Of a stretch of DNA of 3,227 nt, positions 1 through 3,227 are shown piece by piece. Location of the stretch: IMG/VR virus record IMGVR_UViG_2541047736_000005, positions 1 to 3,227 of that record; one strand, written 5' to 3'. The position numbers and the translations under genes are program-made. The stretch's first letter is position 1. Every line of letters begins with the position of its first letter. The DNA is from a virus (lineage: Duplodnaviria > Heunggongvirae > Uroviricota > Caudoviricetes). The notes under the pieces were generated by a model, which saw only the letters and a program-made list of their open reading frames with translations, searched no databases and had not been told where the DNA came from.

Positions 1-19
1 TTTTACTTCTTCATGCCAA

Positions 20-37
20 AAGGGAGCTATCTCCCTT
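20..37 (+). terminator. Candidate intrinsic terminator hairpin for a gene ending upstream of the window
   Basis: Perfect 7-bp inverted repeat AAGGGAG (20-26) / CTCCCTT (31-37) with 4-nt loop CTAT, followed by GTTTGAATTG. The U-tract is weak and the stem is only moderately GC-rich. Confidence 0.25.
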
Positions 38-148
38 GTTTGAATTGAAAAGTCCAGGCTGCAAAGTCTGGGCTTTTGTCGTATTAGGGCACGGTAAAGT
101 TTGGCTGTGCCCGTAAAAAATGGCTGGCTATACACAAGGAATGTGGCA

Positions 149-706
149 ATGAGTGGTGAAAAAAAGGCGAAAGGCTGGCGGTTCTATGGTCTTGTAGGTT
201 TTGGCGCAATAGCACTGCTTTCCGCTGGCGTCTGGGCGTTGCAATATGCTGGCAGTGGGCCAGAAAAAACGTTGTCGCCGCTGGTGGTGCACAACAATCT
301 GCAAATCGATCTCAATGAGCCGGACCTCTTTCTCGACAGCGACTCTCTGAGCCAGCTTCCCAAAGATCTCCTCACCATTCCGTTTCTCCACGATGTTCTG
401 AGCGAAGATTTCGTTTTCTATTATCAGAATCATGCCGATCGTCTGGGCATTGAAGGCAGCATTCGTCGTATTGTCTATGAACACGATCTCACGCTGAAAG
501 ATAAGCTCTTTTCGTCACTCTTAGATCAGCCCGCGCAGGCAGCGCTGTGGCACGATAAACAAGGCCATCTTTCACATTATATGGTGCTGATCCAGCGCAG
601 TGGTTTAAGCAAACTGCTGGAGCCATTGTTGTTTGCCGCTACCAGCGACAGCCAGTTAAGCAAAACGGAAATCAGTAGCATCAAGATAAATAGTGAAACT
701 ATTTGA
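149..706 (+). CDS. Hypothetical protein with N-terminal signal-anchor/TM helix, function unknown (185 aa)
   Basis: Six-frame ORF 101..706. I place the start at ATG 149 because AAGGA at 136-140 gives an 8-nt spacer, whereas the TTG at 101 has no RBS. Stop is TGA 704-706. After a basic KKAK stretch comes a hydrophobic segment WRFYGLVGFGAIALLSAGVWALQYAG, then a hydrophilic domain rich in D/E/L/S. No catalytic motif recognised by eye. Confidence 0.6.
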   Translation: MSGEKKAKGWRFYGLVGFGAIALLSAGVWALQYAGSGPEKTLSPLVVHNNLQIDLNEPDLFLDSDSLSQLPKDLLTIPFLHDVLSEDFVFYYQNHADRLGIEGSIRRIVYEHDLTLKDKLFSSLLDQPAQAALWHDKQGHLSHYMVLIQRSGLSKLLEPLLFAATSDSQLSKTEISSIKINSETI

Positions 707-781
707 TGCGCCGCGCGATAAATGCACTCTATCTTGTGCGATAAATGGCATCCACGCGGCGTTTCATTATTTGAAAAAGAA

Positions 782-1354
782 TTACATTTCAGGTTGCGTT
801 ATGACAGTCCCAACAGGGTGGTAGCGGTAGATCGTTGACAGTCCAATATCATAGATAATTGCCAGCCGCTTTCTGTCATACCCTTTCTGGAGCAATCTTG
901 CGATCTGCTCATGCTGCTCCTTCGTCAGTTTCGGGCGACGTCCTCCAACTCTCCCTTGTGCTCGCGCAGCAGCCAGTCCTGCCAGCGTGCGCTCAACTAT
1001 CAGTTCACGCTCCATTTCTGCCAGTGCACCCATCATATGAAAAAAGAACCTTCCCATCGGAGTGCTGGTATCGATTGAATCCGTCAGACTGCGAAAATTG
1101 ACACCTTTTGCGCGTAGCTCTTCTGTGAGAGCAATGAGGTGTTTCATTCTTCTACCCAACCGATCCAGCTTCCAGACCACCAATGTATCCCCTCTTTTAA
1201 GGCACTTTAAAGCGCGTTTCAGGCCTGGTCGTTCCGACTTGGTTCCGCTCATTTTGTCCTCAAAAATCTGTTCACATCCTGCGCACATTAATGCATTGCG
1301 TTGCAAATCTGTGTTTTGGTCATTTGTTGACACACGTATGTAGCCAATCAGCAT
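782..1354 (-). CDS. pin: Small serine recombinase, DNA invertase of the Hin/Gin/Cin/Pin family (190 aa)
   Basis: N-terminus MLIGYIRVSTNDQNTDLQRNAL carries the catalytic Ser in the RVST motif. Central blocks GDTLVVWKLDRLGR and SLTDSIDTSTPMGRFFFHMMGALAEMERELIVERT and a C-terminal HTH-like IGLSTIYRY match the hallmark blocks of this family. ATG is the complement of 1352-1354, with a GGGAG RBS (complement of 1363-1367, 8-nt spacer). It lies directly beside tail-fibre cassettes, as in Mu G, P1 C and e14 P. The symbol is family-level only; I cannot say which pin allele. Confidence 0.95.
   Translation of the reverse strand: MLIGYIRVSTNDQNTDLQRNALMCAGCEQIFEDKMSGTKSERPGLKRALKCLKRGDTLVVWKLDRLGRRMKHLIALTEELRAKGVNFRSLTDSIDTSTPMGRFFFHMMGALAEMERELIVERTLAGLAAARAQGRVGGRRPKLTKEQHEQIARLLQKGYDRKRLAIIYDIGLSTIYRYHPVGTVITQPEM
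1201..1261. promoter_or_regulatory. Candidate Fis-dependent recombinational enhancer inside the 5' part of the invertase gene
   Basis: Two 15-bp elements with G at position 1, C at position 15 and an AT-rich centre: GGCACTTTAAAGCGC (1201-1215, nearly palindromic about TTTAAA) and GCTCATTTTGTCCTC (1247-1261). Their centres are about 46 bp apart. In Hin/Gin/Cin systems the enhancer lies within the first ~100-180 bp of the invertase gene with two Fis sites about 48 bp apart. Pattern match only. Confidence 0.25.
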
Positions 1355-1408
1355 TAAAAATACTCCCTTTTGAGTGGTTAAAGTACTGAGATAATGTGGG
1401 GAGGATTT

Positions 1409-1434
1409 GAGAGATAAACGTTGGTTTGGGCGAA
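1409..1434. promoter_or_regulatory. Candidate recombination crossover site (gix/hix/pix-like) at the invertase-proximal border of the invertible segment
   Basis: GAGAGATAAACG TT GGTTTGGGCGAA has the AAACx-NN-GGTTT core typical of Gin/Hin crossover sites. The right half-site GGTTTGGGCGAA matches the recalled consensus GGTTTTGGATAA at 9 of 12 positions; the left half matches only in the inner AAAC. The site sits between the invertase start and the fibre cassette, and the cassette reading frame opens exactly here (in-frame TGA at 1408-1410). Confidence 0.45.
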
Positions 1435-1890
1435 ACGATAAATAAAGCCTCCGGAGCTATGCAGAAATCGGCTAATGGAGCTGATATTTCTGATGTATCA
1501 GCCTTCCGAAATGCGCTCCAGTTAGGGGCCGCCGCAACACGAGATGTTGGAGCAGATAATGCCTCGAAGTTACTGGATTTAGACAGCTTCAGGTCAATGA
1601 TGTCAGGGAATGGCTACATCTACATTCCATGCATTGCGACGACAGGAAACCCGGTGAAACTTATGTTGCAGTGGGGAACGGTGGCAACACAAAAGGGAGC
1701 TGATGCTGGATATGCCTTACCATTTGCTTTTCCCTATGCAGGCTTGTTTGCGACCGGAAACCGTGGAACATCTGGCTACAATGCCGCGATGAATGTGCGT
1801 ATTGCCAGCAGAACGCATATCAGTATTCAGAACTGGTCGCCATCCGGAGAGGGCACCGAAGATTGTTGTTTTATCGCGCTGGGGTATTAA
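1411..1890 (+). CDS. Tail-fibre C-terminal (receptor-binding tip) cassette, apparently the silent alternate arm of the inversion switch; no own start or RBS
   Basis: Frame is open from 1411 to TAA 1888-1890. The first in-frame start candidates are TTG 1426 and ATG 1459, with no convincing RBS. The product shares the motif LQLGxAAxRDVG and a C-terminal ...A[IL]GY end (CCFIALGY versus HFEAIGY) with the minus-strand fibre. Its 159 codons are similar in size to the short fibre fragments I recall next to pin in e14. Confidence 0.8.
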   Translation, partial: EINVGLGETINKASGAMQKSANGADISDVSAFRNALQLGAAATRDVGADNASKLLDLDSFRSMMSGNGYIYIPCIATTGNPVKLMLQWGTVATQKGADAGYALPFAFPYAGLFATGNRGTSGYNAAMNVRIASRTHISIQNWSPSGEGTEDCCFIALGY

Positions 1891-1892
1891 GA

Positions 1893-2303
1893 ATGAATAA
1901 ATTTTATAAAGGCTCTTTCTATCCGGAAGCACTAAAAGATGTATATATCAGCGCCGGCTCATGGCCTGAAAACGGCGTTGATGTTGATGATGAAACAATG
2001 GCAATTTACACGGGTGTCGTACCACAGGGTAAAATGCTAGGTTCCGATAAAAATGGCAACCCTGCTTGGGTGGATATTCCGCCTCTTTCAACGGAGCAAT
2101 TAGTTGCCATTATGGAGCAGAAGAAAGGGAAACTTCGTTCGATAGCCGATGCTGAAATTAGCTGGCGACAGGATGCCGTTGATGCAGGGATAGCGACGAA
2201 AGAGGAAACCGCCGCGTTATCTGAATGGAAAAAATACCGGGTCCTGCTGATGCGCGTTGATACAGCAAAACCCGTATGGCCTGTCAATCCGCAGGATATT
2301 TAA
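1893..2303 (+). CDS. Tail fibre assembly protein (Tfa chaperone), 136 aa
   Basis: ATG 1893 lies 2 nt after the fibre stop, suggesting translational coupling. The C-terminal block [31 protein letters not shown] matches the conserved C-terminal chaperone motif of lambda-type Tfa proteins as I recall it (...[25 protein letters not shown]...). The track ORF starts at 1863, but that overlaps the fibre and I prefer 1893. Stop is TAA 2301-2303. Confidence 0.85.
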   Translation: [136 protein letters not shown]

Positions 2304-2517
2304 CGGGGGCGTTGTAGGTGGTGACATATTCAAGCAGTTCTGTTGGATATGTCACCGTTGCTGCATCTCGCTCTACGTTAAATGTATCCGCTCCCCAGAT
2401 AACACACTCCCTCAAAAATGCCTCCACCTCTGGCGAGACTTCAACCGCATCATCAGGTCGCTCTTGTTCAGAAACATAAAAACCAACGGTCGTTGGGCTG
2501 AAATAGATATTCTCCAT
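2284..2517 (-). CDS. Tfa-like N-terminal domain only (77 aa); probable truncated or decayed tail fibre assembly gene
   Basis: ATG (complement of 2515-2517) lies 2 nt after the minus-strand fibre stop, the same junction architecture as the plus arm. N-terminus MENIYFSPTTVGFY...PDDAVEVSPEVEAFL resembles Tfa N-termini of the IYFSA..FY type. The ORF stops at TGA (complement of 2284-2286) without the conserved C-terminal ATKEE..W.KYRVLL.RVD block, and the track shows no minus-strand ORF that could supply it by frameshift. It overlaps the 3' end of the plus-strand tfa by 20 bp. Confidence 0.55.
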   Translation of the reverse strand: MENIYFSPTTVGFYVSEQERPDDAVEVSPEVEAFLRECVIWGADTFNVERDAATVTYPTELLEYVTTYNAPVKYPAD

Positions 2518-2519
2518 AT

Positions 2520-3227
2520 TTAGTATCCTATTGCTTCAAAATGCAGTGTCGGTGTTTCGCCGAGATTGGGTGTCGTATACGCCACAGTGAATCGCGTTCT
2601 TGATACGTCAGTGCCAGAATCAGTATCGCGATGCGTTGCCAGTGATTTTCCGGCCATTGTTGACTGGGTCGGATAGCTGTAACTCGCTAGTGTTGCCAGC
2701 GTTGCTATTTGTGCATTTGGGAATTGTCTGGGGAAATTAACCCTGTAGTAATGGGTGTAGTACGTCACCCCACCAAGCACCTGCGAGTTGAAGTTACCAA
2801 CTGGTGTCAGTGTCACAGTGCCAGCCTGTCGAATCATACCATTTGGGAGAATATCCCAGGCAGTTTGTCCGTTTCGCGACATACCAAATGCGGACATGTC
2901 CGGGAGTTGATTATTACCGGTTCCGACATCCCGTTTTGCCGCTTCTCCCAATTGAAGGTAATTGAGGACTTCTTTTATACTGCCCATAGCGATAATAGCG
3001 CGACCAATAGCTGTAAGGGTTGTCAGCGCTGCGCGGTCTGCTCCGGTAAAATAAGGCAACCGATCTGCTGCAGTGGCAAGTCCTGCCAGAGCAGTGAGCG
3101 TGGCATCTGCCGGTTGTTTTCCGTTTGCCAGATCGTATGCAGCCTTGACCGCTTTCGGTGTGGCGGCCAGTATTTCAGACGTGCTGTTGATGTCACTGCT
3201 CAATTGTACGGTGCCTTTTGCCGTCAG
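2520..3227 (-). CDS. Tail fibre protein, C-terminal portion (partial; 5' end lies beyond the right edge of the window)
   Basis: The reading frame is open from the window edge (3227) down to TAA (complement of 2520-2522); the M in the track at 3203 is a TTG inside an open frame. SDINSTSEILAATPKAVK...NGKQPADATLTALAGL...LPYF resembles the conserved region of lambda-like side tail fibres (recalled, unverified). It is followed by a divergent tip ending HFEAIGY. Confidence 0.9.
   Translation of the reverse strand: MTAKGTVQLSSDINSTSEILAATPKAVKAAYDLANGKQPADATLTALAGLATAADRLPYFTGADRAALTTLTAIGRAIIAMGSIKEVLNYLQLGEAAKRDVGTGNNQLPDMSAFGMSRNGQTAWDILPNGMIRQAGTVTLTPVGNFNSQVLGGVTYYTHYYRVNFPRQFPNAQIATLATLASYSYPTQSTMAGKSLATHRDTDSGTDVSRTRFTVAYTTPNLGETPTLHFEAIGY

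Follow-up and report, generated by a model that had tools for sequence, protein, structure and literature searches.

The transposable phage Mu ends in TG...CA and has several subterminal sites for its transposase at intervals of about 22-23 bp, three MuA sites at each end (R1, R2 and R3 in attR); near its right end it carries a gin invertase together with an invertible tail-fibre segment. The transposase of Tn552, a small staphylococcal transposon and not a phage, reportedly binds two direct 23-bp motifs per terminal repeat and is said to leave duplications of 6-7 bp. The transposase TnpA of phage BcepMu is annotated as a Tn552/IS1604 rve transposase, and the early transposase operon of this phage reads to one end, with the late genes reading to the other. 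BcepMu-related elements have been described with TG...CA termini and an rve-core transposase, and a consensus for the TnpA sites of BcepMu has been published (PMC2628397), which we cite for its existence and not as equal to the GATAAATG-type motif described below. For the B3/Tn552 family of transposases, TG...CA termini together with a 6-bp target duplication form the characteristic footprint (PMC8705779).

Comparison of these systems with the window analysed here, i.e. the whole stretch of 3,227 nucleotides from IMG/VR virus record IMGVR_UViG_2541047736_000005 (positions 1 to 3,227), leaves us highly confident that positions 704-786 represent the intact right end, the attR-equivalent, of a BcepMu/B3-type transposable prophage inserted in the Escherichia coli gene yfaA (Table 1). 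The prophage is a Mu-like phage with a DDE transposase related to that of Tn552. As its architecture agrees with that of BcepMu, B3 and Mu, this kind of feature is already understood and its biological interest is small; what the locus provides is an exact, sequence-level boundary for a very common E. coli prophage, defined by the junction TG, a pair of GCG[CA]GATAAATG sites at a spacing of 23 bp and a target duplication of 6 bp. No annotation is given for the ends of the prophage in the annotated records that we examined, and one predicted-prophage record (PV468777.1) seems, judged by match position alone, to overrun a window-type end by about 1.7 kb.

Table 1. Features of the right prophage end and its surroundings, in window coordinates.
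Feature	Position	Strand	Remarks
Truncated host gene yfaA	149..706	+	First 185 codons, closed by a TGA stop from the phage terminus
Target hexamer ACTATT	698..703		Predicted copy of the 6-bp target-site duplication on this side
Right terminus	704..724	+	Terminal TG (704-705) and conserved block TGATGCGCCGCGCGATAAATG
Inverted repeat, 5' arm CGCCGCG	709..715		Within the conserved terminal block
R1, GCGCGATAAATG	713..724	+	Inward positions 10-21; putative TnpA-binding site
R2, GTGCGATAAATG	736..747	+	Inward positions 33-44; putative TnpA-binding site, 23 bp from R1
Inverted repeat, 3' arm CGCGGCG	755..761		Lineage-specific
End-proximal box TTTCATTATTTGAAAAAGAATTACA	762..786	+	Palindromic core TTTCA-N5-TGAAA, then AATTACA
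Serine DNA invertase (Gin/Pin/Cin type)	782..1354	-	Last prophage gene; Pfam Resolvase (E 8e-51) and HTH_7
Invertible tail-fibre segment	1421..2959		Opposite orientation in L133

On the host side, nucleotides 1-703 of the window are 100% identical to the yfaA region in thousands of E. coli genomes, comprising the stretch directly after gyrA and the initial 185 codons of yfaA; beyond position 703 there is no homology. A sequence-only reading of this DNA had drawn attention to a structured gap of 75 bp (707-781) between a convergent ORF and an invertase gene and had proposed a comparison with empty-site genomes, which places the junction exactly at 703/704: the intact yfaA allele continues uninterrupted past 703 (...ACTATT|CCTGTT..., or at greater length ...GAAACTATT|CCTGTTTATCAG), whereas the window reads ACTATT|TGATGCG (...GAAACTATT|TGATGCGCCGCG). 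The gap is indeed bounded by the stop codons of an ORF at 101-706 (+) and of the invertase ORF at 782-1354 (-). The first of these ORFs is present, but its identity has to be corrected: its stop, TGA at 704-706, consists of the first three bases of the inserted element, and because homology to the host also stops at 703, the supposed convergent ORF is the broken host gene yfaA, whose true start is the ATG at 149, matching the yfaA start in DH5alpha. The gap therefore owes its existence only to the distance of 78 bp between the end of the invertase gene and the terminus, and to the coincidence that the terminal TGA puts a stop to the interrupted yfaA frame; it is a by-product of the insertion and no host regulatory region. 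The same insertion explains the yfaA truncation in the strain carrying the window. Across its length, the window matches contig KE699566.1 of the E. coli draft assembly GCA_000457165.1 (region 2540833-2561390) at 100% identity, and the identical truncated YfaA protein, hence the same insertion, occurs on 17 contigs from several independent samples, a pattern that fits a clonal lineage carrying yfaA::prophage. Farther upstream, between gyrA and yfaA and just past the end of gyrA, there is a terminator-like hairpin at 20-37 (+), AAGGGAGCTATCTCCCTT and then GTTTGAATTG, which is probably the gyrA terminator.

The insertion sites of the element are random. Window positions 704-800 were found in 650 of the 5426 complete E. 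coli genomes (~12%), in 583 of them at an identity of at least 99%, and this 97-bp end occupies 705 chromosomal places in the 650 genomes, the match always beginning at about 704 and the host genes beside it differing from copy to copy (hycH, lptF, dcuC, nfrB, csiE, cirA, ssuB, irp1/2, upaG and others). In IMG/VR, the first 66 bp of the end were found 23 times; 17 of these copies are identical over 100 bp and have 14 distinct flanks. Four full copies of about 36.6 to 41.5 kb were delimited from their end positions (L001, L004+L006, L005+L007 and L008), the longest of which, L005+L007, contains an IS66 insertion. All four have TG...CA termini, with left ends reading TGAT inward (ATCA at the end), and all four are flanked by exact 6-bp target duplications, namely GCTAAT, TCTGTT, GGTATA and TCTCGA; neither 5 nor 7 bp fits as a duplication length in these copies. 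The measured 6 bp agree with the target duplication of B3, in contrast to the 5 bp duplicated by Mu (PMC8705779).

A junction or attachment remnant at the prophage end had been among the readings offered for the gap, and one half of it holds, as the stretch lies exactly at the prophage/host junction, where the attL/attR core left by integrase-mediated, site-specific integration would be expected to lie. That 704-781 is such a core remnant has, in our judgement, practically no chance of being correct. The element encodes no integrase gene, copies of this end lie next to hundreds of different host genes, and the flanking repeats are 6-bp duplications of whichever target was hit, with no shared core, and on these grounds an integrase attachment remnant is excluded; the TG...CA termini and the encoded rve DDE transposase with its AAA+ partner likewise speak against it. 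The stretch is an intact transposon end and no remnant. For the insertion in yfaA, whose other end lies outside the window, ACTATT is the predicted target duplication, judging from the four related copies, and the left junction would read ...GAGATAAATG...ATCA followed by ACTATTCCTGTTTATCAG. Searches of IMG/VR, GTDB genomes and JGI metagenomes returned no exact match either to this predicted left junction (ATCA|ACTATTCCTGTT) or to the window's own yfaA junction.

The gene content of the prophage was read from the full copies sharing the identical end, with the genes for the transposase, its AAA+ partner, Mor and GemA located outside the 3.2-kb window. One operon reads out to the far end and encodes HTH regulators, a DUF3102 protein, an rve transposase, an AAA+ ExeA-like ATPase, Gam, a gp16/GemA-like protein and Mor; divergent from it, the genes for lysis, head, tail, tail fibre and invertase read toward the window end. 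This is the layout of BcepMu and B3, whereas relative to Mu the early region is inverted, and no mom gene lies between the invertase and the end. Pfam searches of the full copies identified rve, AAA_22 and Mor. The transposase TnpA (589 aa) shows the rve core alone and no Mu-specific Pfam domains, and a phmmer search of the PDB yielded no MuA chain at E up to 1. Its identity amounts to 98.6% with the TnpA of Escherichia phage PhiKM, 68.5% with that of BcepMu and 56.5% with that of B3. At the right end itself, BcepMu carries an acyltransferase, in contrast to the Gin/Pin-type invertase and invertible tail-fibre segment of the E. coli element, while B3 (Beetrevirus) differs in having no invertase at its end, and its annotation and taxonomy suggest a different tail module.

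Within the right end, the 10-bp sequence GCGATAAATG occurs at 715-724 and 738-747, 23 bp apart from start to start; in 5000 dinucleotide-preserving shuffles of 704-781, exact direct repeats reaching 10 bp or more arose with P=0.0026, so that this repeat is beyond chance. This repeat, the arms CGCCGCG and CGCGGCG and the tract TTTCATTATTTG, all noticed in the sequence-only reading, were recovered where it had placed them. Read inward, the right end has the order TGATGCGCC-GCGCGATAAATG-CACTCTATCTT-GTGCGATAAATG and the left end the order TGATTAGAC-TTGAGATAAATG-ACAGGGAATAA-GTGAGATATTTA, both conforming to TGAT, N7, G[CA]GATAAATG, N13, G[CA]GATA[AT][AT]T. The motif is therefore found twice per end, at inward positions 10-21 and 33-44, and is inverted between the two ends of the prophage.

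A search of IMG/VR with a degenerate end pattern returned more than 119 loci, corresponding to 59 distinct ends in a right-type and a left-type class, from which a dereplicated set of 29 ends (16 right and 13 left) was derived. Across these 29 ends both motif copies are near-invariant and the spacers between the sites vary; G33 and G35, which lie outside the search pattern, are strongly conserved, and the terminal block 704-724 is conserved among the 16 right-type ends. Part of the alignment was collected with a pattern that fixes some motif positions and carries the corresponding ascertainment bias, which is offset by left ends that were recovered without the pattern as well as by BcepMu and B3, both reached via the protein. 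In these two phages the motif, located through the TnpA protein and not through the pattern, is present at both ends. Conservation of the repeats in related loci thus extends over the 29 dereplicated ends, BcepMu and B3, and the earlier suggestion of a protein-binding site gains substance, with the repeats arranged across the family as would be expected of transposase sites.

Given their position, their spacing, the inverted arrangement at the two ends and the conservation across the family, the best reading of 713-724 and 736-747 is that they are the two candidate transposase-binding sites of this end; their binding by TnpA and the chemistry of the reaction are what we infer from this arrangement. 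In the transposition mechanism that we propose, TnpA would bind the two 12-bp direct repeats R1 (713-724) and R2 (736-747), 23 bp apart, and the same motif at the far end, at equal distances and in inverted orientation. It would then pair both ends and cleave next to the terminal TG/CA, after which the ends would be joined, with a stagger of 6 bp, to a target picked together with the AAA+ partner protein. The expected outcome would be a 6-bp duplication, predicted as ACTATT (698-703) in the case of yfaA.

Comparison of the individual ends revealed close agreement with BcepMu, whose right end starts with TGAAGCGCGGCGCGATATTTC and whose ends align position by position with those of the present element (TGAAGCGCGGCGCGATATTTC...GCGCGATAAAT versus TGATGCGCCGCGCGATAAATG...GTGCGATAAAT), including the TG...CA termini. 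B3 shares the TG terminus and has two subterminal motifs of the G-N-GA[TA]A type at about 12-17 and 33-42, although its motif is more diverged (GAAATT / AATAAATG). For Tn552, the two-motif layout would match the two sites located 23 bp apart here. The right end of Mu reads TGAAGCGGCGCACGAAAAACG...CACGATAAATGCG, with CGATAAATG at 35-43 versus 36-44 in the present element, which in contrast to Mu has only two motif copies per end. A position-weight scan of positions 47-160 in the 29 ends detected no third copy: the mean best score was -0.85 compared with -1.0 in shuffles, and true sites score at least 7.8. The tract TTTCATTATTTG, considered as an inverted third GATAAATG site, was rejected in the course of this analysis, as the weight-matrix scan gave nothing above shuffles. 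As a separate observation, the Mu right end (L137, read inward 1-45) resembles the right ends of BcepMu-type elements almost position for position, although no sequence similarity beyond the rve core is detectable between the Mu and BcepMu-type transposases; this likeness of the ends could reflect either shared ancestry of the ends or convergence.

The two arms CGCCGCG and CGCGGCG form a GC-rich inverted repeat that can be extended to 12 nt (704-715/755-766, 83% complementary), with 39 nt between the arms that contain both conserved sites. A perfect inverted repeat of at least 7 bp was obtained with P=0.22 in the 5000 dinucleotide-preserving shuffles of 704-781 and, taken alone, is not beyond chance. 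Its 3' arm is kept in three sub-lineages only: the window type, the L003 type, with one G-C pair turned into G-T, and the L002 type, represented by the fossil copy of P1-like phage-plasmids, with the compensatory change C709:G761 to T:A. About 12 of 15 right-end lineages lack the arm, as do BcepMu, which consequently has no hairpin, and B3. An origin of the 3' arm as an inverted copy of the terminus, comparable to R3 of Mu, was considered and rejected as a family feature: the arm matches the inverted terminus at 10 of 12 positions in the window lineage only (p ~0.015) and at 9 of 12 in one relative, and no such copy was found in the other lineages, BcepMu, B3 or Mu.

It is nevertheless conceivable, albeit improbable, that, superimposed on the transposon end, the inverted repeat gives rise to an RNA hairpin that has its own function. 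On the + strand, the hairpin followed by UUUCAUUAUUUG would act as an inward terminator or insulator that stops read-through from yfaA antisense to the invertase, and on the - strand it would stabilise the 3' end of the invertase or late transcript. RNA folding of both strands, which the earlier reading had proposed, favoured a structure clearly on one strand and less so on the other, with -31.1 kcal/mol and z -4.33 for the - strand (0 of 200 shuffles as stable) and -24.1 kcal/mol and z -1.96 for the + strand; the compensatory change in the P1-like fossil copy is in line with such a role, as are the three different hairpin configurations by which right ends sequester the terminal GCGCCGCG. Against it stand the chance expectation for a 7-bp inverted repeat in this stretch, the loss of the 3' arm in most right-end lineages, BcepMu and B3, and the presence of the two conserved sites between the arms, and in the L003 lineage the altered position pairs, as G-T, on the + strand only.

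On the invertase strand a terminator cannot be encoded, since only CAUCA follows the hairpin before host DNA begins, which makes a U-tract impossible; on the + strand, the U-rich run is no terminator U-tract, because it belongs to the conserved palindromic box described below, which is also found at left ends with no preceding hairpin. A canonical intrinsic terminator was therefore rejected, with 39 nt between the arms, no U-tract on the - strand and no flag for the stretch 707-781 in a scan with a terminator consensus; a search of 704-786 against Rfam 15 likewise gave no match at E up to 1. The unusual bidirectional terminator envisaged previously is not supported by these results, given that its 3' arm is absent from most related ends, its - strand has no U-tract and its T-run is the conserved box.

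Besides the two candidate transposase sites, the ends share a further conserved element. The tract TTTCATTATTTG at 762-773 is the left part of a palindromic box (762-786) and, with the following GAAA, completes the palindrome TTTCA-TTATT-TGAAA (762-776) within the box sequence TTTCAnTATnTGnAAnnnAATTACA. Almost all right ends contain the box, at inward positions of about 59-83, whereas at left ends it starts at position 86/87 and is the reverse complement relative to the terminus, so that its copies are direct, and not inverted, repeats along the genome. As a consequence of this constant absolute orientation, the box is directed outward in the right end but inward in the left. Its AATTACA part overlaps the stop codon of the invertase in the window and is kept where another neighbour gene stops elsewhere. 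The box is shared with the ends of BcepMu and B3, near both termini in the latter; in the form TGTAATT-N3-TTTCA-N5-TGAAA it lies about 60-110 bp from both termini in BcepMu/B3-type elements (L001 37748-37772; L129 for BcepMu and L130 for B3).

Within the whole prophage, the box occurs at the two ends only, apart from two matches with one mismatch, and the notion of an operator that is reused elsewhere in the prophage was dropped on this account. The box might be an undescribed cis element of B3/BcepMu-type transposable phages, recognised, for instance, by an accessory protein, a DNA-bending protein of the host or an additional TnpA domain that distinguishes the left from the right end, and the lineage-specific hairpin that sequesters the terminal GCGCCGCG could serve as an added insulator against host read-through. 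We consider this proposal tentative and rather unlikely. The directly oriented palindromic box is the one point at this locus that might repay further work. A further asymmetry between left and right was noted in the form of GGGA-rich short repeats, for example two copies of ATGGGAAGA located 22 bp apart, which at left ends lie between the second transposase site and the box (L001 37759-37815, inward positions ~44-100) and are missing from right ends.

The invertase gene directly adjoins the stretch, and the GATAAA within GCGATAAATG resembles half of a Hin/Gin-type site, from which one could suppose that the two GCGATAAATG repeats are crossover or accessory sites of the invertase; motif matches with two mismatches are even present at the real crossover region (1411-1420 and 1435-1444). 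We consider this extremely improbable. Comparison with L133, which stems from another sample with the same yfaA insertion, revealed that 1421-2959, which separates the invertase from the tail-fibre gene, is inverted there (4965-6503, 99.9% identity), with end points at 1421/1422 and within 2940-2959 and hence outside 704-781. Furthermore, the same repeats recur 36 kb away from the invertase, at the opposite prophage end; they are also found at right ends next to which another kind of gene lies, and in BcepMu and B3, for which no invertase is annotated beside the end. The repeats thus remain best read as putative sites of the transposase, and the inversion in a second sample with the same insertion is evidence that the invertase is active in natural populations.

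Two minor observations were made besides. In the tail-fibre assembly gene, a sub-threshold match to Rfam IS009, the sole Rfam hit in the window, was obtained at 2113-2269 (+), with 34.6 bits compared with a gathering threshold of 117 (E 1.2e-5), which is probably a chance or coding-sequence match. In addition, P1-like phage-plasmids contain a fossil right end (TGATGTGCCGCGCGATAAATG...) beside a Hin/Cin-like invertase, located at 1502-1600 of L002 (Escherichia phage vB_EcoM-673R5) and in 22 IMG/VR copies. All fossil copies share one flank and lack the palindromic core of the box, which suggests that the invertase module was captured together with a BcepMu-type phage end.
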